Of a stretch of DNA of 64,000 nt, positions 17,833-63,839 are shown piece after piece. Under the pieces are notes generated by a model that saw nothing but the letters and a program-made list of their open reading frames with translations, ran no database searches and was not told the origin of the DNA. The stretch is from Patescibacteria group bacterium (GTDB taxonomy: Bacteria; Patescibacteriota; Minisyncoccia; RBG-13-40-8-A). Position numbers and translations under genes: made by a program. The stretch lies in NCBI GenBank assembly GCA_018897295.1, contig JAHILA010000014.1, positions 67,891 through 131,890 on the forward strand. Direction: 5' to 3'. The first letter of the stretch is position 1, and the number at the start of each line of letters is the position of its first letter.

Positions 17833-17916
17833 CCAGCCCAGAATATAAAAAAGTAATCAAGATCCCAAATTTTGGTGATTGGATTGTATAAATCCGGATT
17901 AAGGGCTAAAATAAAG

Positions 17917-39082: not shown

Positions 39083-39472
39083 ATGTTAAAAATACGATTA
39101 CAGAGAATTGGAAAAAAGAATAGCCCGAGCTTTCGGGTTGTTTTGGTTGAACACACCATGAGGCCTCAGGGAAAATTTTTGGAACTGCTTGGCTCATATA
39201 ATAAAATTCAGAAACAGAAGAGTTTTAATAAAGAAAGAATCTTGTATCGGATTTCCAAAGGAGCGCAAGTTTCTCCAACCGTGCATAATTTATTAGTTGA
39301 TGAAAAGATTATTGATAAACCAAAGGTAAAAGCATGGAAGCCCAAGAAAAAAACAGTCGAAGAGGCGAAGAATGTTGTACCTCCGACGCCCGCTGAAGGC
39401 GGGGTCGGAGTCCCGACCTCTCCGCCAGATGCGGAGAGCGTCGGGATTGACATAGAACCAAAAAAGGAATAA
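39083..39472 (+). CDS. rpsP: 30S ribosomal protein S16 with C-terminal extension
   Basis: MLKIRLQRIGKKNSPSFRVVLVE S16 N-terminus; start moved to the internal ATG at 39083 (the ORF-track start at 39047 adds a non-conserved leader); the GC-rich tail (39380-39445) encodes PTPAEGGVGVPTSPPDAESVG. Confidence 0.8.
   Translation: MLKIRLQRIGKKNSPSFRVVLVEHTMRPQGKFLELLGSYNKIQKQKSFNKERILYRISKGAQVSPTVHNLLVDEKIIDKPKVKAWKPKKKTVEEAKNVVPPTPAEGGVGVPTSPPDAESVGIDIEPKKE
39380..39445. repeat. double GC hairpin element in the rpsP 3' tail
   Basis: CCGACGCCCGC-TGAA-GGCGGGGTCGG and GACCTCTCCGC-CAGAT-GCGGAGAGCGTC. Confidence 0.5.
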
Positions 39473-41837: not shown

Positions 41838-42086
41838 TTAAACACATAATTAATTAACCCCAGTAGTACAAACCTTTGGTTTGACTACGGGGCAAGCATA
41901 ATTCTTATGTAAAAAGAGCGAACAATTAAACGTACTTTAAAACAGAGTTTAGTTTTGGAATTTAGTTCAAAAATTGAGCTCTGTTTTAAATTGTTCTTTA
42001 AAATAGAAATATGTAATTGTACAGTAAGTTTGTGTGAGTTATTAGAGATCGAATCTTTTATAGTTGTTCTGATACAACTAAAATTA

Positions 42087-43560
42087 TTATTGAGAGTTTG
42101 ATCCTAGCTCAGGACGAACGCTGGCGGCGTGGATAAGGCATGCAAGTCGAATGGGTTTAGACCCATGGCGAACGAGTTAGTAACACGTAGGTACATCCCT
42201 CTGACTTGGGCATAACCCCGCGAAAGCGGGGATAATTCCCAATGGTGTCCCGATTTATCGGGACTAAAGGTTCCGGTGCAAATCGGAATCGGTGAGAGAG
42301 TGGCCTGCGGCCTATCAGCTAGTTGGTGAGGTAATAGCTTACCAAGGCTATGACGGGTAGGGGGCGTGAGAGCGTGTTCCCCAACGAGGGCACTGAGATA
42401 CGGGCCTTACTCCTACGGGAGGCAGCAGTCGAGAATCTTCCACAATGGGCGAAAGCCTGATGGAGCGACGCCGCGTGCATGAAGAAGTCCTTCGGGATGT
42501 AAAATGCTTTTATAAGGGAGCAATTTTTTGAGTGTACCTTATGAATAAGGGGTTGCTAAACTCGTGCCAGCAGCAGCGGTAATACGAGTGCCCCAAGCGT
42601 TGTCCGGAATTACTGGGCGTAAAGCGTCTGTAGGGGGTTTGATACGTCTTCTGTTAAATTTCGATGCTCAACATCGGAGCTGCAGGGGAAACGGTCAGAC
42701 TAGAGAGTGTGAGAGGCTGATGGAACTTAAGGAGTAGGGGTGAAATCCGTTGATACTTTAGGGAACACCAAAGGCGAAGGCATTCAGCTGGTGCATTTCT
42801 GACCCTGAGAGACGAAAGCGTGGGGAGCAAAAAGGATTAGATACCCTTGTAGTCCACGCCCTAAACTATGAATACTAGCTGTCTGAAGTATCGACCCTTC
42901 AGGTGGCGAAGCTAACGCGTTAAGTATTCCGCCTGGGAAGTACGGTCGCAAGACTAAAACTCAAAGGAATAGACGGGAGCTTGCACAAGCGGTGGAGCGT
43001 CTGGTTTAATTCGATGATAAGCGTAGAACCTTACCAGGACTTGAAATTCTAGTGAAACCCCGATGAAAGTCGGGTCTTCTACAAGGACACTAGAACAGGT
43101 GCTGCATGGTTGTCGTCAGCTTGTGGCGTGAGTTGCTCCGTTAATTCGGGTAACAAGCGCAACCCCTGTTGTCTGTTATATGTGTCAGACGAAACTGCCC
43201 CGTGATACGGGGAGGAAGGTAGGGATGACGCCAAATCAGCATGGCCCTCTGATGTCCTGGGCAACACAGGCGCTACAATGGCCGATACAATGGGTTGCCA
43301 AGCCGTAAGGTGGAGCCAATCCCATCAAAGTCGGTCCCAGTTCGGATTGGGGTCTGCAATTCGACCCCATGAAGTTGGAATCGCTAGTAATCGCAGATCA
43401 GCTACGCTGCGGTGAATACGTTCTCAAGCTTTGTACTCACTGCCTGTCACACCAGAGAAGCCGGGGGCACCTGACATTCTCGCATTGCGGGACCTAAGGT
43501 GAATTCGGTGACTAGGGTGAAGTCATAACAAGGCATCCGTAGGGGAACCTGTGGATGGAA
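42087..43560 (+). rRNA. 16S ribosomal RNA (3' boundary uncertain; canonical anti-SD not present after helix 45)
   Basis: AGAGTTTGATCCTAGCTCAG 5' end, internal universal blocks, 3' GTAGGGGAACCTGTGGATGGA; 515-site variant GTGCCAGCAGCAGCGGTAA. Confidence 0.9.
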
Positions 43561-43671
43561 AATATTTTTACTTAGTAACCATTTTGGATGCTAAGGAGAG
43601 TCGATTGAATCCGCCTTTGCGTAAAGCTTCGGCGGACAAGAGGGATTTAGATTTTTGTCCAAATAAAAATC

Positions 43672-43704
43672 AGGCCCGCTTCGACTCGCGAAGCGAGGCG
43701 AGTA
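43672..43704. repeat. GC palindrome element downstream of the 16S body
   Basis: GCCCGCTTCGACTCGCGAAGCGAGGCGAG (GCTTCG-ACTCG-CGAAGC). Confidence 0.5.
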
Positions 43705-43734
43705 TCAGGATAACTATAAAAGATTTGATTCAAA

Positions 43735-43761
43735 AAATCCTCCGCGTTGCGGGGGATTTTT
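43735..43761 (+). terminator. terminator-like hairpin containing the only CCTCC near the 16S 3' end
   Basis: AATCCTCCGCG-TTG-CGGGGGATTTTT. Confidence 0.45.
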
Positions 43762-43832
43762 AGTTCTCTATTGCATATTGTATTATTTTAGCTGTATAAT
43801 AGAATTAGTAATTATTAAATAAAAAAAACATT

Positions 43833-43991
43833 ATGGCAGATGTAGCATACTGCGTAAAATGCAGAAAAAAAGAAGAGATGAAAAATGCAGTAGAGGTTAA
43901 AATGAAAGGGAAGGGGGGAGACAGAAGGGCATTGAAAGGAATTTGTCCTGTTTGTGGAACTGGAATGTTCAGGATTTTAGGCAAAGCTTAA
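43833..43991 (+). CDS. small zinc-ribbon protein (52 aa), candidate
   Basis: CVKC-x24-CPVC; below the ORF-track size cutoff; followed by a hairpin AATCCCGCG-ACG-CGGGATT; no SD. Confidence 0.35.
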   Translation: MADVAYCVKCRKKEEMKNAVEVKMKGKGGDRRALKGICPVCGTGMFRILGKA

Positions 43992-44048
43992 AAGATTTTA
44001 AAAAATCTTATCAAAATTAATCCCGCGACGCGGGATTAATTTTGAGAA

Positions 44049-44120
44049 GGGCGTGTAGTTCACCGGTAGAACGCTTCACTGATAATGAAGAAGTAGAAGG
44101 TTCGACTCCTTCCACGCCCA
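44049..44120 (+). tRNA. tRNA-Ile (anticodon GAT)
   Basis: Manual cloverleaf: GGGCGTG/CACGCCC acceptor, anticodon loop CTGATAA, T-arm GAAGG-TTCGACT-CCTTC. Confidence 0.8.
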
Positions 44121-44143
44121 CTCAACTCGTCTTAATTTTGTTC

Positions 44144-44214
44144 GGGCCTATAGTTTAATGGTAGAACACCGCATTTGCAATGCGGAAATAGCAGTCCGAT
44201 TCTGCTTAGGTCCA
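44144..44214 (+). tRNA. tRNA-Ala (anticodon TGC)
   Basis: G3:U70 identity pair, anticodon loop TTTGCAA; T-loop slightly atypical. Confidence 0.7.
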
Positions 44215-44218
44215 CAAT

Positions 44219-44247
44219 TAAAAAATCTCGCTATGCGAGATTTTTTA
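44219..44247. terminator. bidirectional Rho-independent terminator (tRNA cluster / murC)
   Basis: AAAAATCTCGC-TAT-GCGAGATTTTTT. Confidence 0.75.
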
Positions 44248-44262
44248 ATATTTTAATTCATC

Positions 44263-45567
44263 TTATTTTTTCATTTCTTCTCCAATCTTATATACATCTC
44301 CCGCGCCGAGAAAGAGAATAATACTATTTTTATCAGTATTTTGTTCCAAATAGTTTTTTATTTCGTCAAAACTACTGATGTATTTCGCATTGACGGTCTG
44401 CATTGCTTTAACTAAATCTTTGGAATGGATTGTGTGGTCATCTTTTTCACGCGTAGCATAGATATCAGTGATAATAACTTCATTTGCCAAATTAAAACTT
44501 TCTGCAAAATCATTTAATAAAAGTTTTGTGCGCGAATATAAATGCGGTTGGAAAACAACAATCAGTTTATAGTTTGGATATTGTTCGTTGCAGGTTTTTA
44601 AAGTTGCTTTTATTTCTGTGGGGTGGTGGCCGTAGTCATTGTAAAGTAATGCGCCATTTTTTGCATTGCCCATAAATTCAAACCTGCGCCAGGTGCCAGT
44701 ATAATTTTTTAGGATTTTTAAAGCGGTTTTTTCTTCTATTCCGCACAATTTGGCCGCGTCAAACGCGGCTTGCGCATTTTTAAGATTGTGTTCGCCGGGA
44801 ATGGATAATTTAATATCGGCTTTTCCTTCATTATAATCAATTATCTTTGCCAATTGGTTTATTTTTTTTGCTTTTTTAATTGCTTTGTCCGTATTTTCGT
44901 CATTTAAATCGCAGATAATATATTCTTTTGTTTTGGCGATTAATTTTGCAAAAGCATTTTGGATGTTTTCAATATTTTCATAATAATCCAAATGGTCACT
45001 ATCAATATTTAAAATTACGAGAATATTCGGAGTCAGGTTCAAGAATGATTCTTTATATTCGCAGGCTTCAACAATAAAATATTTACTGCTTCCTAAAACA
45101 AAATTATCTTCCTGTTTTTTTAAAAATCCGCCGACAACAACAGTAGGGTCTAAGTTTCCATAAATCATCAATTCAGCAAGCATGGAAGTAGTGGTTGTTT
45201 TGCCGTGGGCTCCGGATATGGCAATGGTATACATATCTTTGGAAATCAATCCAAGGATTTCTGGATACGAATAAATTGGAATGTTTAGCGTTCTGCCATA
45301 AATTAATTCTGGATTATCCTCGGTTATGGCAGGGGAGTAGATAATCATATTTGTATCTGAAGGCAGATTTTCTTTTTTGTGGTCAATAAAAACCTTCCCC
45401 CCGATTTTTTCAATCCGTTCAGTCGTTTTTCCCGCGGAAATATCAGAACCAGTAACCTTTATACCTTTTAACCGCGCCATTCTGGCAATTGCAGACACTC
45501 CGACACCCCCAATTCCGATAAAATGTATTTTCTTAACGTGGTCGAACATAAGTTTAAATTTTATCAC
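44263..45567 (-). CDS. murC: UDP-N-acetylmuramate--L-alanine ligase
   Basis: IHFIGIGGVGVSAIA N-terminal Rossmann, GAHGKTTTTSM P-loop, Mur ligase C-domain. Confidence 0.85.
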   Translation of the reverse strand: MIKFKLMFDHVKKIHFIGIGGVGVSAIARMARLKGIKVTGSDISAGKTTERIEKIGGKVFIDHKKENLPSDTNMIIYSPAITEDNPELIYGRTLNIPIYSYPEILGLISKDMYTIAISGAHGKTTTTSMLAELMIYGNLDPTVVVGGFLKKQEDNFVLGSSKYFIVEACEYKESFLNLTPNILVILNIDSDHLDYYENIENIQNAFAKLIAKTKEYIICDLNDENTDKAIKKAKKINQLAKIIDYNEGKADIKLSIPGEHNLKNAQAAFDAAKLCGIEEKTALKILKNYTGTWRRFEFMGNAKNGALLYNDYGHHPTEIKATLKTCNEQYPNYKLIVVFQPHLYSRTKLLLNDFAESFNLANEVIITDIYATREKDDHTIHSKDLVKAMQTVNAKYISSFDEIKNYLEQNTDKNSIILFLGAGDVYKIGEEMKK

Positions 45568-45629
45568 AGAGAATCTTTGTTGCCAAATTAATTTTGTGCT
45601 ATAATTAATTATGTTATAATTAAATTAAA

Positions 45630-45678
45630 GGTCGACCTGCCTGCAACGTCAGCAAACTGTCTTGCGTGGCGGGCAGGG
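45630..45678. repeat. GC palindrome element in the divergent intergenic region
   Basis: GACCTGCCTGCAACG...CGTGGCGGGCAGGG. Confidence 0.45.
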
Positions 45679-45703
45679 AATTAAGAATTAAAATTATTTT
45701 ATT

Positions 45704-46372
45704 ATGTTAGAAATATTACTTGATTCATTGACGCAAATTTGGCAGAGCTTTATTGAGTTCTTACCGACATTATTGGCATCTTTAATCGTTTTCATTGTAG
45801 GCTGGTTGATTGCTATATTCTTGGGCAAGATGGTTAACCGAATGATAAAAGCTATAAAACTTGATCTGCTTTTAGAAAGGCTTAATTTTCAGAAAGCATT
45901 AGCCAAAGCAAGATTAAAATTGGACTCTCCGAAGTTTTTTGAAGAACTTGTAAAATGGTTTTTCATTATCGTTTTCTTAATGACAGCAGTTGAGATTTTA
46001 GGATTAGTAGAGGTAACTCTGTTTTTAAAGGGCATCCTTTATTACATACCTAATGTTGTGATTGCCGCTATCATGCTTTTGGCCGCAGCTATTGTTGCGA
46101 AGTTTATGCAGAAATTAGTGAAAGCCAGTGCTGATACTGCCGGCCTTTCATCAGCAAATGCGATTTCCGGAGTTGTGAAGTGGGCAATTTTGATTTTCGG
46201 TTTTGTAATTGCTTTAACCCAATTAGGAATTGCCGCAGCTTTAATCCAGACAATCATTATTGGAATTATTGCTATGATTACGATTGCAGGCGGTCTTGCA
46301 TTCGGCCTAGGAGGAAAGGATCTGGCAGCTAATATTCTGGACAAAATTAGGCAGGATTTAAGCGATAGATAG
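45704..46372 (+). CDS. membrane protein with conserved TM-helix repeats (MscS/CmpX-like family, tentative)
   Basis: Repeated hydrophobic helices with G/A-rich faces; no enzymatic motif. Confidence 0.4.
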   Translation: MLEILLDSLTQIWQSFIEFLPTLLASLIVFIVGWLIAIFLGKMVNRMIKAIKLDLLLERLNFQKALAKARLKLDSPKFFEELVKWFFIIVFLMTAVEILGLVEVTLFLKGILYYIPNVVIAAIMLLAAAIVAKFMQKLVKASADTAGLSSANAISGVVKWAILIFGFVIALTQLGIAAALIQTIIIGIIAMITIAGGLAFGLGGKDLAANILDKIRQDLSDR

Positions 46373-46383
46373 TAATAGAGGAC

Positions 46384-46412
46384 TTGACACGCGATTTTTT
46401 ACCATTTACAAT
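46384..46412 (+). promoter_or_regulatory. candidate 23S rRNA promoter
   Basis: GAGGACTTGACA-N17-TACAAT about 200 nt upstream of the 23S 5' end. Confidence 0.55.
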
Positions 46413-47136
46413 GGTAGTGTTGTTAGTTTATATGAGAAAAAACCAAAAACAATTTATAAAAAAGAGCGGTTGATAAAACCAGGTATTTTCATACCCGTGG
46501 ATGTCAAACCGCTAAAAGCGGTTTTTTCAATCCTGAACTTTGAAAATTGAATATGTATAGCAAGTAATAAAAGTAATAATAAGTAGTAGTATCTATAAAT
46601 TGCCAGCTATATTAAGCAGGTTATATATTAAGGGTGTATGGTGGATGCCTTGACATTAGAAGACGAAGAAGGACGTGGCGTAACTGCGATAAGCCTCGGG
46701 GAGGTGTGTAGCGACCTTAGATCCGGGGATGTCCGAATGGGGAAACCCAATATAGTGATAAACTATATTATCCCGACTTTATTGTTGGGAGGTGAACTCG
46801 GCGAAGTAAAACATTTCAGTAGCCGGAGGAACAGAGAAAAACTTTATTCCCCAAGTAGTGGCGAGCGAAAAGGGAAGAGCCCAAACCTGATGGTCCCGCA
46901 TTTGTGGGATTATTAGGGGTAGTAAGATAGTGACGTCGGGAGAAATCCCGGGGAGTGAATACAAAACTAAGACTTCCTTAGTTGAAAGGGATGGAAAGCC
47001 CTACCGAAGAAGGTAATAGTCCTGTAAGCGAAAAGGGTCTTATACTCCTAGTCATTAATCTTGAGTACCGCGAGAACATGCAGTCTCGCGGGAATCATCC
47101 TGAACTATCTAGGAAAGGCTAAATACTTCTAATGAT

Positions 47137-47175
<39 letters not shown>

Positions 47176-48447
47176 GCCCGACAAGGGCAGTGAAATAGTA
47201 CCTGAAATCATACACTTACAAAGAGTCGGAGCCCCGCATTAGCGGGGTGACGGCGTGCTTTTTGCAGAACGAACCAACGAGTTTACCGTAGACTGTTTTG
47301 TCTAAGTCCGTAAAGGACGGAGGCGTAGGGAAACCGAGTGTTAATAGCGCGTTTTATAACAGTATGCGTAAGACCCGAAGCCAGGTGAGCTACCCATGGC
47401 CAGGATGAACCCCGATGAAAATCGGGGGGAGGTCCGAACCCATCGGCCGTGCAATACCGTGGGATGAGCTGTGGGTTGGAGTGAAAAGCTAATCGAACCT
47501 GGTAATAGCTGGTTCTCCTCGAAATATGTTTAGGCATAGCCTCTTATTTTTCTCCTTAGGGGTAGAGCACTAAATGGGCTGAGGTGGCGCAAGCCTACTC
47601 ACTCAATTAAACTCCGAATACTAAGACAGATAATAAGGGAGTAAGACTGTGGGGGCTAAGCTCCATAGTCAAAAGGGAAACAGCCCAGATCGTCATCTAA
47701 GGTCCCAAAACTAAGTTAAGTGGGAAAAGAAGTGCCTCGTCTTATACAGATGGGATGTTGGCTTAGAAGTAGCCATCATTTAAAGAGTGTGTAATAACTC
47801 ACCATTCTATTTATGACGAAGTGCGCTGAAAATGTAACGGGGCTCAAACTTAGTACCGAAGATACGAATTTCTCTCCGATTTATCGGAGAGGAGTGGTAG
47901 AGGAGCATTTCTTGTGCTGTGAAGTCATTTCGTGAGGAATGGTGGAGCGCAAGGAAGAGAGAATGTTGGTATGAGTAACCGCAAGTCTGATGCGAAATCA
48001 GACCACCGAAAGCCCAAGGATTCCTTGGCAATGTAAATCAACCAAGGGTTAGGCGGGCCTAAGGCAATCCCGAAAGGGGTAGTCGATGGACAGTCGGTTA
48101 ATATTCCGACCCTTCTGTATTTTTTTATGGAGTGACGGAGTTTAGTAGATAGGGCAGATTATTGGATTTTTGTCTGTATATTAAGAAGCTAGGCTAGGTA
48201 AATCCGGTTTAGAATACTTCAAGATATGCAGGAAGTTTCGATTTCGATCGGGATTACCCTATTGAGCAGACTTCCAAGAAAAACTTCTAAAATAAGAATA
48301 CAGGATCCGTACCGCAAACCGACACAGGTGGGCAGGGCGAGAAGCCCAAGGTGAACGGGTTAACCCTCGTTAAGGAACTCGGCAAAATAGCGGCCGTAAG
48401 TTCGCAATAAGGCCTTCCCCCGCTTAGCGGGGGACGCAGCTAAAGAT

Positions 48448-48478
<31 letters not shown>

Positions 48479-49347
48479 CCTGCTAACTCGTAAGAGGATG
48501 TATAGGGGCTGACACTTGACCAGTGCTGGAAGGTTAATGGTGGGGGTGTCTCGACCTTGCGTCGGGATGCTCACTGCTTGAAGCCCCAGTGAACGTCGGC
48601 GATAACTATAATCGTCCTAAGGTACCGAAATTCCTTGGCATGTAAGTTATGTCCTGCAGGAAAAGTGTAACGACTGGAGAACTGTCTCAACGAGGAGCCC
48701 GGTGAAAATGCAGTGTCAGTGAAGATGCTGACTACCTGCGACAAGACGAAAAGACCCCAGGAGCTTTACTATAACTTGGTATTGTTTTAATGTTTTTGAT
48801 GCGTAGCGTAGACGGTAGGATTTGAAGGTCGCCTCTCGGGGCGGCTGGATCCGACAATGAAACACCGTTCTTTAAAAATGTTAAAACTAACCCCTCCGTA
48901 ACAGAGAGGGACAGTGCCAGGCGGGTAGTTTTAGTGGGGCGCTAGCCTCCTAAAGAGTAACGGAGGCGTTTATTAAGGTCGACTAGCTCCGGATGGAAAT
49001 CGGAGTGATAGTGTAAAGGCAAAAGTCGGCTTTACTGCAAGACTGACAGGTCGCGCAGTTGCGAAAGCAGAACTTAGTGAACCGACTCTGGTTAATAGAA
49101 TCGGAGAAGATCATCGGACAAAAGCTACCCTGGGGATAACAGGCTGGTAGGCGCTAAGAGTTCATATCGACGCGTCTGTTCGGCACCTCGATGTCGGCTC
49201 ATCTCATCCTGGAGGTGGAGAAGCTTCCAAGGGTTTGGCTGTTCGCCAATTAAAGAGGTACGTGAGCTGGGTTCAAACCGTCGTGAGACAGGTTGGACTC
49301 CTATCTGTCGTAGGCGTAGATACTTGAGAGACTTTGTCCCTAGTAAG

Positions 49348-50104
49348 AATATTGCTACTTCACGAAGTAATTCGTGATGACAATGTGGCTTATAACGGTG
49401 AAGTCTTAATAAAATATGGTCTATTGATAATCATTATTGCATCGGTCCAATAATAATGATACAATTTAATTGAGGACCAGATAATTATTAAGATAATACC
49501 GTGGGAAGTCGATCTAAAATTAATTATGCGTATATTGCAGGATTTCTTGATGGTGATGGAAGTTTAATGTTTCAAATCAAAAAACGGAAAGATGGCAAAT
49601 CTAAAATAAGATTTATGCTGACTATCTGTTTTTATCAAGATTCTAGACATGCAAAACCACTATACTGGATTAAAAGAGTTTTGAGGATAGGTTATATCTC
49701 AAAACGTAAAGACGGAATTACTGAATTAAGGATTAACGGTTTTAAGCAGATTAAGGATATAGTGGGGAATTTAATTCCATTTATCAAATTTAAGAAAGTC
49801 CAAGCAAAAGCAATATATAGCGCTGCGAATCTTTTGAATTGTGTAAAAAACAAGGATTTATCTGAGAAAGATTTACACAGGTTAATAAATTATATTCTGG
49901 TGATTCAGAATAATAATTATGTGACCAAAAAAAAGAAGACTAAAAAAGATTTGTTAAAGATTTTAGATTTGACCCCGTAACGACTTGATCCGATTTCCAT
50001 CGGATCGGAGTTCAGTAGAAATACTGAGCTAATACGCCACTACCCTAATTCCGATTAACGTCGGAATGGGTAAAGATATAGTCTGCGCACATAGTGATAT
50101 GTGA
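49348..50104 (+). mobile_element. intron (probably group I) in 23S rRNA carrying a homing endonuclease gene
   Basis: Insertion between exon sequences CCCTAGTA and CGAGAGGACC; contains the LAGLIDADG ORF; boundaries approximate. Confidence 0.6.
49501..49980 (+). CDS. LAGLIDADG homing endonuclease (intron-encoded)
   Basis: YIAGFLDGDGSLMF LAGLIDADG motif; 159 aa, single-motif type; located inside the 23S gene. Confidence 0.85.
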   Translation: MGSRSKINYAYIAGFLDGDGSLMFQIKKRKDGKSKIRFMLTICFYQDSRHAKPLYWIKRVLRIGYISKRKDGITELRINGFKQIKDIVGNLIPFIKFKKVQAKAIYSAANLLNCVKNKDLSEKDLHRLINYILVIQNNNYVTKKKKTKKDLLKILDLTP

Positions 50105-50405
50105 TAACGTGACGAGAGGACCGGGATGAACAAACCTCTGGTGTACCAGCTGTCCTGCCAAGGGCACTGCTGGGTAGCTATGTTTGGCAGAGATAAATGC
50201 TGAAAGCATATAAGCGTGAAACTCTTCTCAAGATTAAGTATCATAGATTCCTTGAAGACTACAAGGTTGATAGGCTTCAGGTGTAAGTCCTGTAAAGGAT
50301 TTAGCCGAGAAGTACTAATAAATCATTTTGCCTGTTTAATACGGCTGGCAATTTTTGGACACTACACTTTAAAATAATTTTATTTGCAACAAACAAGATT
50401 GCGGT

Positions 50406-50528
50406 CATTGTAAGGGGGTTATACTTGGGGTGCTCCACCTGATCCCATTCCGAACTCAGAAGTGAAATCCTTAAAGGCCGATGGTACCCCGATGAACTTC
50501 GGGGAAGAGTAGGTGACCCTCCTACAAT
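50406..50528 (+). rRNA. 5S ribosomal RNA
   Basis: CCACCTGATCCCATTCCGAACTCAGAAGTGAAA and GGCCGATGGTACCCCG...GGGGAAGAGTAGG conserved blocks. Confidence 0.75.
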
Positions 50529-52176: not shown

Positions 52177-52929
52177 ATGAATCCATATACTAAAAAACAA
52201 TTTATTATCGGATTGGTGTGGGTGGTGATTTTTGCGATTATCATTGGCGGGATTTATTTATTGATAAAATCAGAAACTCCCCCTGTTAATAATGGAAATC
52301 AAAACGAACCAAAGGAAGATTTAATTATTTTATCCCAATCTTTTATTCTGACTACGGAAAATAATTTTGACTTGGTTGCTAAAATTAAAAATTCCAATAA
52401 TGAATGGGCAGCCGAGTCATTTACTTATGTTTTTAACTTATACGACAGCGCTAATCAGTTGATTGGTTCGCGACAAGGTAAATCATACATTCTGCCACAA
52501 GAAACAAAATACATTATTGAACAGAAAGTTTCTTCGCAAAAATCAATCTCAAAAATCGAATTAAAAATTAGTAATGTCTACTGGGGAAAAATAAGCCAAT
52601 TAGGAGGCCTAGAATTAAGAGTGAAAAATACAGAATACCAAATATTGGAAGATGGCAGCAATCTGTTTACAGGCACAGTGGAAAATAAAAGCAGTTATGA
52701 TTTAGACACTATAGAAGTTGCCGGAGTTTTGCTCAATGAAAATAATGAGATTATTGCTGCTGGTAAAACCTCAATGAACACAGTTTTAAGAAATGAGAGC
52801 AGGGGATTTGAAATTTTTTGGCCTTATCCTATTGCGCAGGAAACCAAATCGTTTGACGCCAGGGCTTATACTAATATTTTTTTGAATGACAATTTTATCA
52901 AAACCCAGGGCGAACCGCCAAAAGAATAA
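52177..52929 (+). CDS. membrane-anchored/secreted hypothetical protein
   Basis: N-terminal TM, then a soluble domain without recognisable motifs. Confidence 0.4.
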   Translation: MNPYTKKQFIIGLVWVVIFAIIIGGIYLLIKSETPPVNNGNQNEPKEDLIILSQSFILTTENNFDLVAKIKNSNNEWAAESFTYVFNLYDSANQLIGSRQGKSYILPQETKYIIEQKVSSQKSISKIELKISNVYWGKISQLGGLELRVKNTEYQILEDGSNLFTGTVENKSSYDLDTIEVAGVLLNENNEIIAAGKTSMNTVLRNESRGFEIFWPYPIAQETKSFDARAYTNIFLNDNFIKTQGEPPKE

Positions 52930-52930
52930 A

Positions 52931-53012
52931 TTATGCCCCGTAGTGAATTTTTGACTGATGCTACGGGCATCAAAATAATTTTTAATTAGTCAAAAATCTA
53001 CTACAGGGTATG
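52931..53012 (+). repeat. inverted-repeat leader element copy 2 (upstream of ftsW/rodA), ends at the start codon
   Basis: ATTATGCCCCGTAGTGAATTTTTGACTGATGCTACGGGCATC...TTAATTAGTCAAAAATCTACTACAGGGTATG; matches 17917-18031. Confidence 0.6.
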
Positions 53013-54119: not shown

Positions 54120-54148
54120 TTGACAATCTTTTTAAGTGTGTGTAGGAT
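54120..54148 (+). promoter_or_regulatory. sigma70-like promoter (TTGACA-N17-TAGGAT) preceded by hairpin CCCGCA-ACT-GCGGGG
   Basis: GCGGGGTTGACAATC context as in the other promoters; upstream of the 54186 gene. Confidence 0.55.
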
Positions 54149-54154
54149 ATTAGC

Positions 54155-54170
54155 GTAAGAAAAATCTTAC
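54155..54170 (+). promoter_or_regulatory. 16-bp perfect palindrome GTAAGA-AAAA-TCTTAC between the -10 box and the SD (candidate operator or 5' stem-loop)
   Basis: Identical copy at 63824-63839 in the same position relative to another consensus promoter. Confidence 0.5.
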
Positions 54171-54185
54171 AAAAGGAGGAGAAAA

Positions 54186-56521: not shown

Positions 56522-56809
56522 ATGGCAAAAATTATTTTTAAAATTATGAAGGCAGGGGAGAAAGGACGTTCGGAAGTTGAGATAATTCTGGAAACCCGCC
56601 GCAAGCAAAGCAAGCAGGCGGGCCCGTCAAAATACAAAGTTTTTGTCCGGGACACTGATGAAGTACTTTCTGCGCTTGACACGCTATTAAAAAGGAGTAA
56701 AATAGGATTAGAGTCAGTAAAAGATATTAAAATAGAGACTCATAAAGAAGCAGGGCTTACCTCTACGAGGATAATAAAATCAATTGTAAAAGCCCTTTGC
56801 TTCCTCTAA
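56522..56809 (+). CDS. hypothetical protein (95 aa); coding status uncertain
   Basis: Internal ATG of the ORF-track 56279-56809; contains a GC palindrome (RRKQSKQAGPS) and promoter-like TTGACA boxes; may instead be rpoB leader. Confidence 0.3.
   Translation: MAKIIFKIMKAGEKGRSEVEIILETRRKQSKQAGPSKYKVFVRDTDEVLSALDTLLKRSKIGLESVKDIKIETHKEAGLTSTRIIKSIVKALCFL
56594..56626. repeat. GC palindrome copy (CCCGCC-GCAAGCAAAGCAAGCAG-GCGGGC)
   Basis: Sister copy of 60058-60093. Confidence 0.55.
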
Positions 56810-56910
56810 ACTTGACTTGGAAATATAAATAAATTAGTATAGAAAAGCTAGTGAAAGCCCTATTTTAGGGTCAGTTTCTATATTTTAATCGGGTAAAATG
56901 CTGCGTTTTC

Positions 56911-59900
56911 ATGATTAAATATTTTTCAAACTATCCGAAAAAATTATATCCTCTTCCAAACTTAGTTGAAATTCAACTTAATAGTTATAAATTATTTTTA
57001 GAAAAAGGATTGAGGGAACTCTTTGATGAAATATCTCCTATCGTCGATTACGGCGGTAAGGATATTTCTTTATATTTTAAGGAATATTATCTGGATGAGC
57101 CCAAATGTGATGAGATAAAGGCCAAAAAAAATAGTCTTTCCTACGAAGCGCCTTTAAAAATTAAATTAAAATTAGTCAATAAAAAAGCGAACGAGACAAA
57201 GGAACAGGAGATTTTTCTCACTGATTTGCCTTTGATTACTCCCCGCGGAACATTCATTGTCAACGGAGTGGAAAGAGTTGTTATTTCCCAGTTGATAAGG
57301 TCCGCGGGTGTTTTTTTTAAGACAAGTTATATAAAAGGAAGGAAAGTGCATGGCGCAAAAATCATTCCGAACCGAGGCGCTTGGCTGGAATTTGACACAG
57401 AAGCAAACAATTCAATTGTTGTGCGTATTGACAGAAAAAGAAAAATTCCAGCAACAGCATTGCTTAGAATTTTTGGTTTGGATACTGATGAGAAAATTCT
57501 CAAGGAATTCAAAGACATTGACAATGATGCTGATATTCAATATATAAAAGAAACTCTGGCCAGGGATACTTCCAAAACATCCGACGACGCCTGGATTGAA
57601 ATTTACAAAAGAATCAGGCCAGGCGATTTGGCTGCTATTGATAATGCAAGACAGCTGATTGAAAATATGTTTAAGAATTTCGACAGATATGATTTATCGG
57701 AAGTCGGTCGTTATAAATTAAATCAGAGAATAGGAATTAAGACTCCACTGGACCCAGGACACAGGATTTTAAGAAAAGAAGACGTGGTTGCAACTATAAA
57801 AGAAATTATTAAATTGAATAATGATCCGGATTTGGTCGGAGATGATATTGACCATTTGGGAAATAGGCGCGTGAGGTCGCTGGGAGAACTTTTGCAAAAT
57901 AAATTCAGAGCAGGCATGGCGCGGGTGATCAGAATTATTAGAGATAGAATGAGTACCATGGACGCTTATAATTTAGCTCCTGCGCAACTTGTTAATTCCA
58001 GGCCGCTTATGGCAGCAGTCAAAGAATTTTTCACATCATCGCAATTATCCCAGTTTATGAATCAGGTAAATCCTTTGTCAGAACTGGAGCATAAAAGAAG
58101 ATTGTCAGCCATGGGCCCCGGAGGCCTAACCAGAGAAAGAGCGGGATTTGAAGTCCGCGATGTGCATCCCTCCCATTATGGAAGAATTTGTCCTATTGAA
58201 ACTCCAGAAGGCCCGAATATTGGTTTGGTTGGCCATCTGGCAAGTTATGCCAAAATTAATGATTATGGATTTATAGAAACTCCATACAGAAAAGTTGAAA
58301 ACGGAAAGGTGACAAATAAAATTGTCTATATGGGCGCTTCTGAAGAGGAAAAATACAATATTGCTCATGCAGGCATTGTTCTGGAATCCAGTGGTCGCAT
58401 GAAAGAGAAAAGAGTTGAGGCAAGAATTCATGGCGAGCCGGGAATTATAGAACGAGACAAGATTGACTGGATGGACGTTTCGCCATACCAGTGTATTAGT
58501 ATTGCTACTGCTTTGATTCCTTTTGTTGAACACGATGATTCAAACCGCGCATTGATGGGTTCAAACATGCAGAGGCAGGCAGTGCCATTGGTTAATCCAG
58601 AAGCGCCGCTCGTCGGCACCGGAATCGAAAGGAAAGCAGCTGTGGATTCAGGCCAGGTAATGCTTTCACCAAGCGACGGAGTAATCAAAGGCGTCGATGC
58701 TTCCCGTATTACTATTTCTTCAAAAGGAACTTTAAAAACTTATCCTTTAAATAATTATTTGCGTTCTAATGAGTATACCTGCATTCACCAGAGGCCGATA
58801 GTCAGGCCTGGCCAGAGAGTTAAGAAAGGCGATGTTATTGCTGACAGTTCTTCAACTCAGGATGGCGAACTGGCTTTAGGGCAAAATCTTCTGGTGGCAT
58901 TTATGTCCTGGTCAGGAGCTAATTTTGAAGACGCAATCGTGCTTTCGGAAAAATTGGTTAAAGATGACAGATTCAGCTCTATTCATATTGAAGAATTTTC
59001 CTGCGATGTGCGTGATACAAAACTTGGGCCGGAAATAACCACTCCTGATATTCCTAATGTCGGCGAGGACAGGTTAAAGGACTTAGATGAGGAAGGTATT
59101 GTTAGAATCGGCGCTGAAGTCGGGCCGGATGATATTTTAGTAGGCAAGATTTCACCTAAAGGCGAAACTGATTTGACTGCGGAAGAAAGATTATTGAGAG
59201 CAATTTTCGGGGATAAAGCCAGAGATATCAAAGATACTTCATTAAGATTGTCCCATGGCAAGCGCGGAAGAGTGGTCGGCATTAAAATTTTCTCAAGAGA
59301 CAAAGGCGACAAACTGCAGGCCGGAGTAATCAAGACAATACAGGTTGAAGTTGCCCAATTCAGAAAAGTTTCCATTGGCGACAAGCTGGCAGGCAGGCAC
59401 GGAAATAAAGGAGTTATTTCTAAAATTCTGCCTGAACAGGATATGCCGTATCTGGCAGACGGAACTCCGGTTGATGTTGTTTTGAATCCTTTGGGAGTTG
59501 CTTCACGTATGAATCTCGGGCAAATATTGGAAACTCATTTGGGATGGGCAGCAAAAACTTTAGGATACAGGACTTACAGTCCTCCGTTTTCAGGCGTGAC
59601 TGAGGAAGAAATCAGAGGGGAATTGAAAAAAGCCGGATTGCCGGAAAGCGGAAAAGTCATTTTACGCGATGGCAGGACCGGCGAACCGTTTATCAATAAA
59701 GTTACGGTCGGTCAGATTTACATCATGAAATTGAATCACTTGGTTGAGGATAAAATTCATATGCGTTCAATCGGCCCTTATTCATTGATTACCCAGCAGC
59801 CGCTCGGGGGAAAGGCTCAATTCGGAGGCCAGAGATTCGGAGAAATGGAAGTGTGGGCATTGGAAGGATATGGCGCAGCGCATACATTGCAGGAAATGCT

Positions 59901-60096
59901 GACTATAAAATCCGATGATGTTATTGGCCGCGCTAATGCTTATGATTCAATTATTAAAGGCAGGCCGATTCAGGCGCCTCATTTGCCTTCATCTTTTAAT
60001 GTTTTATTAAGCGAAATAAGATCGCTTGGATTCGCGATTAATTTAGTAAAAGATAAACCCGCCGCAAGTCCAAAGGACAAGCAGGCGGGCAGGTAA
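56911..60096 (+). CDS. rpoB: DNA-directed RNA polymerase beta subunit
   Basis: Conserved blocks: [30 protein letters not shown], fork and rifampicin-cluster regions; C-terminal 12 aa and the stop lie in a GC palindrome. Confidence 0.95.
60058..60093. repeat. GC palindrome copy (CCCGCC-GCAAGTCCAAAGGACAAGCAG-GCGGGCAGG) forming the rpoB 3' end
   Basis: Encodes [12 protein letters not shown]-stop; 1-nt spacer to the rpoC ATG. Confidence 0.55.
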
Positions 60097-60097
60097 T

Positions 60098-63000
60098 ATG
60101 GATTTTGAAGAGAAAAAACCAGAAGAATTTAACGGGCTTCAGTTGAAAATTGCAGGACCGGAGGAGATTTTGTCGTGGTCGCACGGAGAAATTACTAAAC
60201 CGGAAACAATTAACTACCGAACGCAACGCGCAGAAAAAGATGGCTTGTTCTGCGAGAAAATTTTCGGCCCGGAAAAAGACTGGGAATGTTATTGCGGAAA
60301 ATACAGAAAAATCAGATATAAAGGAGTTGTCTGTGACCGCTGTGGAGTGGAAGTAACTCGTTCAATTGTTAGGCGTGAAAGGATGGGCCATATAAAATTA
60401 GCAGTGCCGATTTCCCATATTTGGTTTTTAAGAGGCGTGCCGTCAAGAATCGGTTTAATTTTAGATATTTCAGTACAAAAACTGGAGAAAGTTGTTTATT
60501 TTGTTGCATATATCATCACCAATGTTGATGAGAAAGCCAAGGAAAAAGCTTTTAATGATATAGAAAAGGAATTTAAGGCAAAATTAAAAACAATTAAAGA
60601 CAAGGAAGCAAAAAAAGAACTAAAACTTGCCCGCGATAAAGCCAAAGAGGAATTGTCAAAAATAAAGAAATTGGAAATTATTTCAGAACTGACATTCAGA
60701 TATTTATCCCAGAGATACAGCGATGTATTTTCAGCTGGGATTGGAGCTCAGGCATTGAGGGATATCTGCAAGGAACTTGATTTGGAGAAAATAGTATCAG
60801 AACTTGAAGAGCAGTTGAAGAAAGTAGAATCAATTCAGAAGAGAAAAATTTTGCAGAGATTAAGATTGATTAAAGGATTCCAAAGAGCGGGAATTAGACC
60901 AGAATGGATGTTTTTGACAATACTGCCGGTCATGCCAGCTGATTTGAGGCCAATGGTGCAGCTGGATGGAGGCAGATATGCTACTTCTGATGTTAACGAT
61001 TTATACAGAAGAGTGATTAACAGGAATAACCGCTTGAAAAGATTATTAGAATTGAACGCGCCAGAAGTTATATGTAGAAATGAGAAGAGGATGTTGCAAG
61101 AAGCCATTGATGCTTTAATTGATAATTCTGCACGCAGGGGGCAAAAAGCCGTAATGGCTGCAACCGGACAGAAAAGGCAGTTAAAATCTTTGGCAGACCA
61201 ATTAAAAGGGAAACAGGGAAGATTCAGACAAAATTTGCTTGGAAAAAGAGTTGATTATTCCGGTCGTTCAGTTATCGTTGTTGGCCCGGAACTGAAACTC
61301 CATCAATGCGGTATTCCCAAAACAATGGCTTTGGAATTATTCAAGCCATTCATTATCAATAAATTAATAGAAAGAGAAATAGTATTTAATATCAGAGGAG
61401 CAAGAAGGTTGATTGAAGAAGGAGTTGAAGAGGTTTGGGAAATTTTAGAAGAAGTGACTGAAAGATATTATGTATTATTAAATCGCGCTCCTACCTTGCA
61501 TCGTTTGGGCGTCCAAGCATTTAAGCCAATTTTAGTTGAGGGTTTGGCAATTCAGCTTCATCCAATGATTTGTAAGGCGTTTAATGCTGATTTTGACGGC
61601 GACCAGATGGCTGTGCATTTGCCATTGTCGGAAAAGGCCCAGAGAGAAAGCAGGGAAATTATGCTTTCTTCTGTCAATTTATTTAAGCCGGCAACAGGTG
61701 AACCAGTAGTTGCTCCAAGTCAGGATATTGTTCTGGGTTGTTATTTTATGACAAAAATAGAATCAGGGTTTAAGGGTGAAGGAAAAATATTTTCAACTCC
61801 GGAAGAAGCAATTATGGCTTATCAATTGGATGTTATTGATTTGCAGGCTGCGATTAAAGTGAAGATTCCCACCCAGGGCGGGTCCGACTCGGGCGGAGAC
61901 ATCATTGATACATCAGCCGGCAGGGTTATATTTAATACTGTTCTTCCTCCTGAAATAGGATTTAAAAACAAAGAAATGACACAGAAAGAATTAAAGGGTG
62001 TGGTTGAAGAAATTATTAATATTTTAGGAACTGAAAAAACTCCTGAAATTTTGGACAAAATAAAAACATTAGGATTTAAATATGCAACTAAGTCAGGGCT
62101 CAGTTGGGGAATGGATGATATTAGTTTGCCTGTTGAAAAACCGAGGATTGTTGAGGAAGCAATAAGAAAAGTTGAACAAATTAGGAAACAATATCAGGAA
62201 GGACTTTTAACCAGAGCAGAAAGAAGGTCAAAAATTATTGAAATCTGGTCAAAGGTTAAAAACGAAATTTCAGTTTTGGTCTCACAGACACTTGATCCGC
62301 ATGGTTCAATTCACACTATATTTTCATCTGGCGCCCGAGGCTCCTGGGGCCAGGCAGTACAGATGGCAGGAATGAAAGGATTGGTTATTAATCCGGCTTC
62401 CGAGACATTGGAGTTGCCGATTATCAGCAGTTTCAAAGAAGGATTTAATGTTCTGGAATATTTTATTTCCACTCACGGAGGTAGAAAAGGCTTGGCTGAT
62501 ACAGCTTTAAAAACTGCCAGCGCTGGTTATCTTACGCGACGTTTGGTTGATGTTGCCCAGGATGTAATTATTAAAGAAGCTGATTGCAAAGACAAAGAAG
62601 GAATTATTTTTTATAAAAGAGATTTGGAAGATTTGGGGATTTCTCTTGTTGTGCAATTGACCGGCAGGGTCATTCTGGAGGACATTGTTGTTAAAGGTAA
62701 AGTTATTGCCGAGAAAAATGAATTATTGACCAAGAAAAAAGCCCAGGAAATTGAAGTAGCAGGAATTGATAAATTAAGAGTGAGATCAGTTATCTCCTGT
62801 AAAGCCAAATTCGGAGTATGCCAGCAGTGTTATGGCTATGACTTAGGCAGGAATAAATTAGTTGAGAAGGGAGAAGCAGTAGGTATTGTTACTGCCCAAG
62901 CAATCGGCGAACCAGGCACCCAACTTACTTTAAGAACTTTCCATACTGGAGGTGTTGCCGGAGGCGCTGATATTACTCAGGGTTTGCCAAGAGTTGAAGA

Positions 63001-63730
63001 AATTTTTGAGGCCAGGGTTCCAAGAAATAAGGCAGTACTCAGTGAGTTAAATGGAAAAATTATAGATATTAAAGAACATAAAGGGCAAAGAATTATTACT
63101 GTCGACGGCTGGCAGGAATTAAAAAATAAAAAAAGGAAAAAAACTTCTAAAGAATATATTGTATCTCCGCAAGTCGGCGTCTGGGTCCAGAAAGGTGATG
63201 AAGTGAGCCAGGGCCAGCAGTTGTGCGAGGGTTCTGTTGATTTAAAAGATTTATTTAAACTGGCAGGATTAGAAGCTCTGCGCAGATATATTATTAAAGA
63301 AATCCAGGGAATTTACAGTATCCAGGGAGAAGGTTTGAATAATAAACATATTGAATTAATTGTTCGCCAGATGCTTTCTAGGGTCAGAGTTAAAGATGAA
63401 GGAGATACCAATCTTTTGGTTGGCGCGATTATTGAAAAAGACATATTTTTACAAGCCAATGACAAAGCGAAAAAAATGGGTAAAAAACCGGCAACCGCTG
63501 TACAGGTATTAATGGGCATTACCAAGATTGCTTTAAGCACGGAAAGTTTCTTGTCAGCAGCTTCATTTATGGAAACTGTCAGAGTTTTGATTAAAGCAGC
63601 TTCAGAAGGTAGAATCGACAGATTGAGGGGATTAAAAGAAAATGTTATTTTAGGAAGATTAATCCCAGCAGGCACAGGATACAGGGAAATGGTAGAAGAC
63701 AAAGAAAGAGAAAAGGAAGAAAAGAAATAA
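60098..63730 (+). CDS. rpoC: DNA-directed RNA polymerase beta' subunit
   Basis: Zinc-binding CYCGKY...CDRCG, NADFDGD catalytic motif, trigger loop and bridge helix regions. Confidence 0.95.
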   Translation: MDFEEKKPEEFNGLQLKIAGPEEILSWSHGEITKPETINYRTQRAEKDGLFCEKIFGPEKDWECYCGKYRKIRYKGVVCDRCGVEVTRSIVRRERMGHIKLAVPISHIWFLRGVPSRIGLILDISVQKLEKVVYFVAYIITNVDEKAKEKAFNDIEKEFKAKLKTIKDKEAKKELKLARDKAKEELSKIKKLEIISELTFRYLSQRYSDVFSAGIGAQALRDICKELDLEKIVSELEEQLKKVESIQKRKILQRLRLIKGFQRAGIRPEWMFLTILPVMPADLRPMVQLDGGRYATSDVNDLYRRVINRNNRLKRLLELNAPEVICRNEKRMLQEAIDALIDNSARRGQKAVMAATGQKRQLKSLADQLKGKQGRFRQNLLGKRVDYSGRSVIVVGPELKLHQCGIPKTMALELFKPFIINKLIEREIVFNIRGARRLIEEGVEEVWEILEEVTERYYVLLNRAPTLHRLGVQAFKPILVEGLAIQLHPMICKAFNADFDGDQMAVHLPLSEKAQRESREIMLSSVNLFKPATGEPVVAPSQDIVLGCYFMTKIESGFKGEGKIFSTPEEAIMAYQLDVIDLQAAIKVKIPTQGGSDSGGDIIDTSAGRVIFNTVLPPEIGFKNKEMTQKELKGVVEEIINILGTEKTPEILDKIKTLGFKYATKSGLSWGMDDISLPVEKPRIVEEAIRKVEQIRKQYQEGLLTRAERRSKIIEIWSKVKNEISVLVSQTLDPHGSIHTIFSSGARGSWGQAVQMAGMKGLVINPASETLELPIISSFKEGFNVLEYFISTHGGRKGLADTALKTASAGYLTRRLVDVAQDVIIKEADCKDKEGIIFYKRDLEDLGISLVVQLTGRVILEDIVVKGKVIAEKNELLTKKKAQEIEVAGIDKLRVRSVISCKAKFGVCQQCYGYDLGRNKLVEKGEAVGIVTAQAIGEPGTQLTLRTFHTGGVAGGADITQGLPRVEEIFEARVPRNKAVLSELNGKIIDIKEHKGQRIITVDGWQELKNKKRKKTSKEYIVSPQVGVWVQKGDEVSQGQQLCEGSVDLKDLFKLAGLEALRRYIIKEIQGIYSIQGEGLNNKHIELIVRQMLSRVRVKDEGDTNLLVGAIIEKDIFLQANDKAKKMGKKPATAVQVLMGITKIALSTESFLSAASFMETVRVLIKAASEGRIDRLRGLKENVILGRLIPAGTGYREMVEDKEREKEEKK

Positions 63731-63767: not shown

Positions 63768-63798
63768 GAAAAATCTGTCAACTATTGACAGATTTTTA
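63768..63798 (+). terminator. rpoC terminator hairpin whose 3' arm contains the next promoter's -35 hexamer
   Basis: GAAAAATCTGTCAA-CTA-TTGACAGATTTTT. Confidence 0.6.
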
Positions 63799-63813
63799 TA
63801 TTGGGTGTATAAT
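63785..63813 (+). promoter_or_regulatory. consensus sigma70 promoter TTGACA-N17-TATAAT
   Basis: Perfect hexamers with a 17-nt spacer. Confidence 0.65.
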
Positions 63814-63823
63814 GTAAATGTAA

Positions 63824-63839
63824 GAAAAATCTTACAAGG
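63824..63839 (+). promoter_or_regulatory. second copy of the GTAAGA-AAAA-TCTTAC palindrome
   Basis: Identical to 54155-54170; followed by SD CAAGGAGGAAAA. Confidence 0.5.

Follow-up and report, generated by a model that had tools for sequence, protein, structure and literature searches.

Two GC-rich palindromic elements in and beside rpoB of a Patescibacteria genome, probable members of an element family found within genes of the Candidate Phyla Radiation

Rickettsia palindromic elements (RPEs) are repeats of ~100-150 bp that are restricted to Rickettsia and are found in frame in unrelated genes as well as in intergenic regions (PMC10969869). Other small non-autonomous repeats, such as ERIC, BOX and Correia/NEMIS, can also make in-frame fusions or alter transcripts (PMC10969869). 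Repetitive extragenic palindromic sequences (REPs) lie outside genes, reach high copy numbers and are tagged at one end with GTAG or CGTC (PMC3733652). Here, two copies of a GC-rich palindromic element are described from contig JAHILA010000014.1 of a Patescibacteria metagenome-assembled genome, one in a small open reading frame (ORF) directly upstream of rpoB and the other in the last codons of rpoB itself. The stretch of 64,000 nucleotides that was analyzed, referred to as the window, has a G+C content of ~37%, and its closest named relatives by RpoB are Candidatus Portnoybacteria. Both copies are probably members of a family of small GC-rich palindromic elements of mobile origin that has spread across the Patescibacteria, also known as the Candidate Phyla Radiation (CPR). 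No description of such elements was found in the literature on CPR, Patescibacteria or Parcubacteria, although coverage of that literature is incomplete and this is absence of evidence only.

The complete element, hereafter the CPR unit, spans 57-81 nt from CCCGCC to GGCGGG and consists of two tandem hairpins (H1 and H2) on the same strand. Its closest analogue is the RPE. Both are hairpin-forming palindromes of a reduced-genome, host-dependent lineage, both lie in frame in many unrelated genes, including housekeeping genes, where they are translated, both also occur between genes, and for neither is a transposase known. The likeness is one of behaviour; RPEs measure ~100-150 bp and the CPR unit 57-81 nt, the latter being GC-rich in an AT-rich genome. 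Furthermore, unlike RPEs, the CPR unit has two tandem hairpins with identical CCCGCC/GGCGGG feet, is present in several CPR lineages and is read in several frames. By size, architecture and lineage, it is not a member of the RPE family.

The features of the rpoB locus are listed below by window coordinates, strand and basis.

56522..56809, + strand: small conserved protein gene (95 aa), host of copy 1, directly upstream of rpoB; ORF
56592..56651, + strand: copy 1, full two-hairpin element (AAA + H1 + H2), in-frame reading TRRKQSKQAGPSKYKVFVR; covariance model R1
56595..56622, + strand: copy 1 hairpin H1, CCCGCCGCAAG-CAAAG-CAAGCAGGCGGG, 28 nt; pattern, fold and R1
56623..56651, + strand: copy 1 hairpin H2, variant CCCGTCAAAATACAAAGTTTTTGTCCGGG, 29 nt; fold and R1
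56676..56703, + strand: promoter-like TTGACA-16-TAAAAT in the small ORF, outside the element; 11/12 consensus match
56911..60096, + strand: rpoB, 1061 aa; ORF with all six RNA_pol_Rpb2 Pfam domains
60055..60090, + strand: copy 2, truncated element with H1 only, in the last rpoB codons; covariance model R1
60091..60100, + strand: AGG TAA T ATG, the last rpoB codon, stop, 1-nt spacer and rpoC start, outside the element
60098..63730, + strand: rpoC, 1210 aa; ORF with RNA_pol_Rpb1 domains

The two copies share two exact blocks, AAACCCGCCGCAAG at 56592-56605 and 60055-60068 and, following it in the same order in both copies, CAAGCAGGCGGGC at 56611-56623 and 60078-60090. The repeat AAACCCGCCGCAAG…CAAGCAGGCGGGC therefore spans 56592-56623 and 60055-60090, with middle parts that differ (CAAAG in copy 1, TCCAAAGGA in copy 2). 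In the 64 kb, the motif CCCGCC-N(4-34)-GGCGGG is present at these two sites only; shuffled sequence is expected to hold 0.04, and none of 100 shuffles reached two. A first-pass annotation of this DNA had reported a palindromic repeat in two places; the repeat is real and both sites were right, while the positions given were 1-4 nt off. With filters off, covariance model R1 recovers the same two copies, all other hits having E >= 0.4. Copy 1 matches the full model (71.6 bits, E 2e-12) and folds as RNA at -24.9 kcal/mol (z -3.4), and copy 2 (44.5 bits, E 5e-7; -20.1 kcal/mol, z -4.1) is missing 26 model positions of H2.

A scan for the exact pattern AAACCCGCCGC…AAGCAGGCGGG in species-representative genomes and JGI metagenomes placed both copies in a wider family. 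The species-representative collection, from which the source assembly of the window is absent, gave 26 matches, two of them true and both in Patescibacteria, the rest being mostly coding coincidences in GC-rich genomes. One true match, from a Paceibacterota genome (L030), is situated between rplD and rplW, and the other consists of nested copies in a Saccharibacteria genome (L022). The JGI metagenomes gave 32 matches, ~28 of them true. All true matches come from contigs of low GC content, and those that have a taxonomic label all belong to the Patescibacteria. Among viral contigs, there were no matches to the H1 pattern and a single GC-rich chance match to the H1/H2 junction, and hence no sign of phage carriage. 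The Saccharibacteria copies have a structure of their own: at 5711-5843 of contig CAYJWU010000019.1, the loop of each hairpin holds another CCCGCC/GGCGGG-type hairpin, and a solo H1 lies 20 nt after the nested copies, beside masked Ns.

Across the family, H1 has the form CCCGCC-GC-AA-[variable stem-loop]-AA-GC-A-GGCGGG and a length of 28-42 nt, and H2, directly 3' of it, has the form CCCGCC-N-NAA-T-[variable stem-loop]-T-TTN-GGCGGG and a length of 28-39 nt. The element is usually preceded by an A-rich run and followed by GAAG, and all copies have the ends (R)AAACCCGCC and GGCGGG(G)AAG. When 24 distinct full copies were aligned on one two-hairpin structure, 95.2% of cells were paired and 15 pairs showed compensatory changes, values reached by none of 500 shuffles, while slid partners paired at 32-45%. 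One relative, L007, has a compensatory change from C-G to T-A at H1 positions that were held constant in the search pattern. Unpaired bases are also conserved, namely the AA/AA loop, the bulged A and the T·T. For the 64-nt consensus, the folding energy is -38.9 kcal/mol (z -4.2), both strands fold equally well, and the wobble pairs in the alignment (nine G·T vs five A·C) indicate no strand. In the H2 feet, the 5' arm reads CCCGTC in copy 1, L063, L064 and L067 and CTCGTC in L044, and the end GTCCGGG is found besides copy 1 only in L067. At the gathering threshold, Rfam 15 has no matches in the window besides rRNA and tRNA. At E<=10, copy 1 is free of Rfam overlaps, and those of the consensus copy in L049 are weak, at 14-17 bits vs gathering scores of 41-115.

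This architecture invites comparison with elements that move as folded DNA. In REP/REPIN-RAYT systems, REP-sized hairpins (20-40 nt) are GC-rich imperfect palindromes with conserved extrahelical bases and are often paired, as in the CPR unit, and REPs and REPINs are thought to act as folded single strands, like the CPR hairpins. Unlike REPs, however, the CPR unit lacks a GTAG/CGTC tag, its ends being (A)AACCCGCC and GGCGGGG, and it is mostly intragenic and in low copy, with hairpins that are direct where those of REPINs are inverted. The ends of IS200/IS605 elements (e.g., IS608 and ISDra2) have subterminal same-strand hairpins and strand asymmetry, and insertion occurs without target-site duplication at a short preferred target. 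Two hairpins with near-identical stems on the same strand, as in miniatures derived from IS200/IS605, are also found in the CPR unit (H1 and H2 direct), which is likewise strand-asymmetric and may also lack target-site duplication and lie beside a short preferred sequence. The CPR unit differs from IS200/IS605 in that no TnpA or TnpB was found nearby, no cleavage or guide sequences were recognized, and the apparent ends fall at the feet of the hairpins. ERIC, BOX and Correia/NEMIS share with the CPR unit a small, non-autonomous nature and the capacity for in-frame fusion; to our knowledge, none of them is known from CPR. Intragenic miniature inverted-repeat transposable elements differ from the CPR unit in having terminal inverted repeats and usually target duplications, in being mostly intergenic as a class, and in a length of ~100-200 bp.

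Wherever a copy falls within a long ORF, it reads in the sense direction and keeps the host frame open; ~18 independent sites were counted, all of them sense (p about 4e-6). Besides the RpoB tail (window, L006 and L007) and an internal RpoC loop (L038), the hosts confirmed by Pfam are YchF, GyrB, GyrA, SecA, Pth, PCMT, L25, L22, S16, a MiaB-MiaA fusion, an ATP-grasp protein and a class-II aminoacyl-tRNA synthetase (aaRS) whose closest homologues are named lysyl-tRNA synthetase (LysRS) by their sources. In YchF, the same site is occupied in two lineages, and in the ribosomal proteins L22, L25, S16 and L31 the element lies in C-terminal tails. Of 26 copies, 19 have a total length divisible by three (p 4e-5), which does not hold for H1 and H2 taken singly, and apical inserts of 5, 6, 7, 9, 15 and 16 nt shift the frame within the unit. 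Several reading frames are used, yielding at least four readings (KPAAS…KQAGPP; NPPQ…; KPAASFASRRARQN…; TRRK…), and in-frame translation would yield tryptic peptides such as PAASPEGK and QAGPPQSEGLGGE(…). From a collection of 5.8 billion proteins, a concatenated 46-aa query of the element peptide gathered three candidates only, a number that does not serve as an estimate of how many proteins carry the element. That the total length is a multiple of three despite shifts of frame within the unit suggests that ribosomes read through it, which argues against both a selected peptide module and removal of the element from the mRNA.

The strict orientation can be explained without a function in RNA. 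The flanks are purine-rich (RRRAAA^GAAG), with five or more A in the 8 nt upstream of 21 of 30 copies, and in rpoBC the sequence AAAGA occurs 46 times in sense vs 6 times in antisense, so that the target is ~8-fold commoner on the sense strand. In addition, the reverse complement of the element folds as a GC hairpin followed by a U-run, and an inverted copy would thus resemble an intrinsic terminator inside the gene. The two copies in L006 lie 9 kb apart in opposite orientation, each sense to its own host gene. Copy 2, which is followed by AGGUAAUAUGG, does not appear to be an intrinsic terminator between rpoB and rpoC, as the terminator scan made no call on the + strand and a U-tract is present only on the reverse complement. 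Two further copies, L044 (10506-10570) and L063 (14502-14566), have an H1 loop (CTGATG and CTGACG) with an in-frame TGA, at which the host ORF would end as …KEKPAAS*; in these cases, the element itself may supply the stop codon.

Individual host sites give evidence of turnover of the element. Identical 64-mers are present in the S16, LysRS and SecA genes of L049, L056 and L066, and the L25 copy differs from them by 1 nt. The LysRS site is filled in four of 120 homologues, with most being empty and reading …KIV-(G)KK-DEKEVF. The insert, a peptide of 20 aa (60 nt), falls between KK and DEKE, i.e., AAA AAA / GAT, and no target duplication is visible at the protein level, bearing in mind that the AAA belonged to the search pattern. 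The class-II aaRS encoded in the window was considered as an empty LysRS site and dropped because it is not an orthologue, and LysRS homologues were used instead. As separate observations, LysRS enzymes of another clade (P0127-P0132, P0139, P0149-P0151, P0168, P0176 and P0219) carry a different palindrome-like insert, HPVKSRKAGAAKQQFNGA, at the site of the L056 element, and those of P0185, P0214, P0230 and P0236 carry a SAKGGSASGG insert at a separate site. In S16, the unit has a Lys-rich motif on both flanks within a region of low complexity, and the S16 gene of the window is empty at the site of the family studied here (family A). A few codons downstream of this empty site, the window S16 tail (39375-39445) contains a tandem pair of long GC-rich hairpins (CTCCGACGCCCGC…GGCGGGGTCGGAG and TCCCGACCTCTCCGC…GCGGAGAGCGTCGGGA), translated as PPTPAEGGVGVPTSPPDAESVG, which are similar in architecture to the studied element and belong to a different family.

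The ORF that hosts copy 1 is conserved upstream of rpoB in six genomes, those of the window, L004, L005, L006, L007 and L067. Between the window and L067, this ORF differs largely by synonymous changes (GGG CTT ACC TCT ACG AGG ATA vs GGG CTA ACA TCA ACA AGG ATT). Its 95-aa product matches no Pfam family at E<=0.1; the C-terminal half of the 56522-56809 product (…LDTLLKRSKIGLESVKDIKIETHKEAGLTSTRIIKSIVKAL) may resemble the N-terminal segment of TsaB/YeaZ. L067, at 82% RpoB identity, shares the copy 1 unit with the window, down to the H2 variant (CCCGTC…GTCCGGG). L006 and L007 lack the unit, and a shorter, divergent segment takes its place in L004 and L005. An early candidate reading of copy 1 as a young 24-nt insertion was dropped, as the unit is 60 nt long and common to L067. 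The promoter-like site TTGACA-16-TAAAAT lies downstream of copy 1 and upstream of rpoB, in a stretch that is nearly invariant in the window, L004 and L005. At 4770-4830 of L067, a second, different GC-rich palindromic insert (…RPTSTRGGSTRGRSG…) is located in the N-terminal part of the small ORF.

Copy 2 lies in a part of RpoB that is highly variable among 120 relatives, many of which have tail peptides resembling translated GC-rich palindromes. Its CCC…GGC portion (60058-60090) encodes 11 residues of this C-terminal tail, with eleven codons in place of the six in the element-free form. At 97% RpoB identity, the closest element-free relative, L005, ends differently (…KDKEDKDKKK*) and shows a local fold of -0.9 kcal/mol; the RpoB C-termini thus bear out the proposal of the first-pass annotation that the tail was altered. 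At the same identity, L003 and L004 have copy 2 with three hairpin-weakening substitutions, and the L004 copy is decaying, with a fold of -14.3 kcal/mol (z -0.8) vs that given above for the window. L006 and L007, at 82% RpoB identity, contain full H1+H2 units 2-4 residues past the conserved RpoB core, as in the window. The apical stem reads TCC-AAA-GGA in copy 2 and GCC-AAA-GGC in L007, and relatives at 72% RpoB identity also have …QAGPP…LAGK in the tail. The full unit at the same tail position in the 82% relatives suggests an old insertion followed by loss of H2 and the Lys-rich tail in the lineage of the window, and copy 2 is probably an old, truncated relic. A candidate in which the copy 2 loop (AAAGGACAAG) was the ancestral tail was dropped because the family shows that TCCAAAGGA belongs to H1. 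A third family, of two tandem TCCCGAC-NNNN-GTCGGGA hairpins read as KSRPQSGSRQKSGK, is observed in the RpoB tail of L009 (3400-3445), P0011, P0013, P0017, P0026, P0040 and P0069, and insertion into this tail seems to have recurred.

The second copy had been described as forming the last rpoB codons and providing the stop, and as apparently having remodeled the 3' end of the gene together with the rpoB-rpoC junction. The copy is indeed within the last rpoB codons, and the TAA (60094-60096) does lie 1 nt ahead of the rpoC ATG at 60098. However, the shared sequence ends at 60090, and the AGG TAA T ATGG that follows is not found in copy 1 and is homologous to AAG TAA T ATGG in the element-free L005. 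The junction aligns in the window, L003/L004 and L005 (AGG/AAG, TAA/TGA, T, ATGG, with AGG TGA T ATG in L004), and the …GTAATATGG stop/rpoC-start junction is common to the window and L005. As the same junction is present in an element-free relative, the stop and 1-nt spacer either predate the element or are independent of it. Remodeling can thus be upheld for the RpoB tail (11-12 residues) and not for the stop and spacer; on this alignment, the last codon, stop and TAAT-ATG junction with rpoC are ancestral.

The likely explanation of the copies in the window is a family of mobile DNA. The elements would be non-autonomous selfish DNA, surviving only where an additional hydrophilic loop or tail of 19-27 residues is tolerated. 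Copy 1 is an intact unit in a small conserved ORF. Copy 2 would be the 5' hairpin alone, left in a disordered, lineage-variable RpoB tail after an old full insertion lost H2 and the downstream Lys-rich sequence. The mobilizing enzyme may recognize folded single-stranded DNA, as would a Y1/HUH transposase (IS200/IS605 or RAYT type); this is suggested by two hairpins on one strand that have identical feet, by the extrahelical bases and by the lack of a visible target duplication. The bias of the target towards the sense strand and the terminator-like form of a reversed copy would help to explain why only sense copies are seen.

Several observations weigh against this explanation. In the sequence covered for mobilizing genes (the 64 kb window and the 10-kb flanks of relatives), no RAYT gene or Y1_Tnp domain is present among annotated neighbors, and no transposase or other mobilizing gene was found among the Pfam-annotated neighbors of L001-L009 or elsewhere in the available sequence. 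Copy number is low, with two copies in the 64 kb of the window and one to two exact-pattern copies per contig of 100-160 kb. The exact ends and the lack of target duplication are defined only to within a few nt, there being no clean pair of filled and empty sites at >90% DNA identity, and part of the seeming invariance of the 5' AAA and the H1 arms is circular, as the search pattern required both. Gain vs loss of copy 2 is not rigorously polarized, and the difference between the window and L005 is not a clean indel. Finally, selection at the RNA level could account just as well for the compensatory changes between orthologous sites, for the conservation of unpaired bases and for the strictness of the sense orientation.

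This last point is the basis of the main alternative, in which the hairpins are functional mRNA structures under selection, serving as binding or processing sites of a CPR-specific factor, as stabilizers or as ribosome-pausing signals. At rpoB, where H1 lies 8 nt ahead of the rpoC start, it would adjust translational coupling or subunit stoichiometry, and the stability of the copy 2 hairpin adjoining that start is in keeping with such a role, as are the strong covariation, which extends to orthologous copies, and the enrichment of hosts for transcription, translation and replication genes. Such a function is nevertheless unlikely. Presence of the element varies among relatives at 97% RpoB identity, where L004 is decaying and L005 is unstructured; positions within hosts are unrelated, ranging from N-termini, internal loops and C-terminal tails to an intergenic spacer; the constraint on total length points to a dominant cost at the protein level; and there is neither an excess of G·U over A·C (9 vs 5) nor a match to an Rfam family. 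Moreover, palindromes also gain compensatory changes through arm-to-arm correction at the DNA level, known as quasipalindrome correction. A more radical proposal draws on the orthologous compensatory changes, conserved unpaired bases and sense orientation together with the lack of a match to any known enzyme or RNA family. It envisages either a CPR-wide, strand-specific structured signal in core-gene mRNAs or single-stranded DNA that is read by a dedicated factor, which could be an RNA-binding or processing protein co-regulating transcription, translation and replication genes, or a new hairpin-guided mobilization system homing to Lys-codon-rich surface loops; we consider it rather improbable.

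The remaining alternatives each conflict with the data above. The first-pass annotation had treated the two copies as sisters, overlooking H2 and the spread of the family. A local origin, in which duplication or gene conversion across rpoB produced one copy out of the other, would explain the identical arms of 14 and 13 nt and the presence of only two copies in 64 kb. This is very unlikely, however, because ~28 copies from other organisms have exactly these arms, the apical parts (CAAAG vs TCCAAAGGA) are unlike, and H1 of copy 2 matches that of the L25 gene in L051 without a difference, even in its apical part. Copy 1 is a full unit in another gene and has its H2 variant in common with the orthologous site of L067, copy 2 shares its position and apical CCAAAGG with L007, and L004 has copy 2 without copy 1. 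Judged from these comparisons, the window copies are separate, old insertions of the family and not a local pair. It is still less probable that a hydrophilic linker peptide (KPAAS…KQAGPP.SEG.GGE) is selected and spread by recombination, with palindromy being incidental. Most intragenic copies do share one frame and similar peptides, but the alternative readings and frame-shifting apical inserts described above, the covariation of pairing at the nucleotide level, the copy in the rplD-rplW spacer and the in-frame TGA in the loops of L044 and L063 speak against a peptide module. Chance matching or an assembly artefact, in favor of which there is only the low count of copies in the window, is scarcely credible, given shuffle expectations of 0.04-0.7 across tests, ~30 homologous copies elsewhere and the presence of the window sequences in independent assemblies (L002 from Logan and L059 from JGI).

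Other repeats were observed in the window. GC-rich palindromes of the CCTGCC…GGCAGG type lie at 29203-29240, 29518-29550, 32214-32252, 35040-35070, 37825-37852 and 20469-20489, in frame in GatB (twice, …DLPAGRQG…), a MiaB-MiaA fusion, DnaE, the L32 tail and a GH1 glycosidase; within them, 32214-32249 is a perfect 36-nt palindrome. The RpoB tail end of the relative P0004 is nearly identical to the palindrome-coded L32 tail. A leader of ~100 nt is duplicated upstream of two genes 35 kb apart (17914-18025 and 52928-53012), including a block of 37 nt with 100% identity (TAATTTTTAATTAGTCAAAAATCTACTACAGGGTATG) that runs into the start codon, and one of the two genes is an FtsW/RodA homologue at 53010. 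At 54120-54172 and 63785-63837, the latter downstream of rpoC, a promoter-like TTGACA…TATAAT region precedes a small hairpin and a ribosome-binding site (GTAAGAAAAATCTTACAAGGAGG) that are the same in both places. The rRNA operon (42086-50525) contains two protein-size ORFs between tRNA-Ala and the 23S gene (44263-45567 on the - strand and 45704-46372 on the + strand), and the 23S match covers only 2,725 nt of the 2,925-position model. A nested GC-rich palindrome of 60 nt (GCCCGCCTAGACTCGACTCGCCTCGCTAAAGCTATGGCGAAGCGGGCGTCTAGTCGAGGC) is located at 16508-16567, in the spacer just 3' of tRNA-Gln.

For the locus itself, the message is modest: the RpoB tail contains a relic hairpin, and the rpoB-rpoC junction is ancestral. 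Should the family be borne out, the CPR/Patescibacteria would be the second case, after Rickettsia, of palindromic DNA colonizing essential genes and being translated in them, which would point to a recurring mode of evolution of protein tails and loops in reduced genomes. The elements would also partially explain the GC-rich extensions, rich in Pro, Ala, Gly and Lys, of ribosomal proteins and polymerase subunits in CPR, and annotators would be warned that such segments are not lineage-specific functional domains. In addition, model R1 would provide a compact marker for tracing horizontal spread among uncultured lineages.

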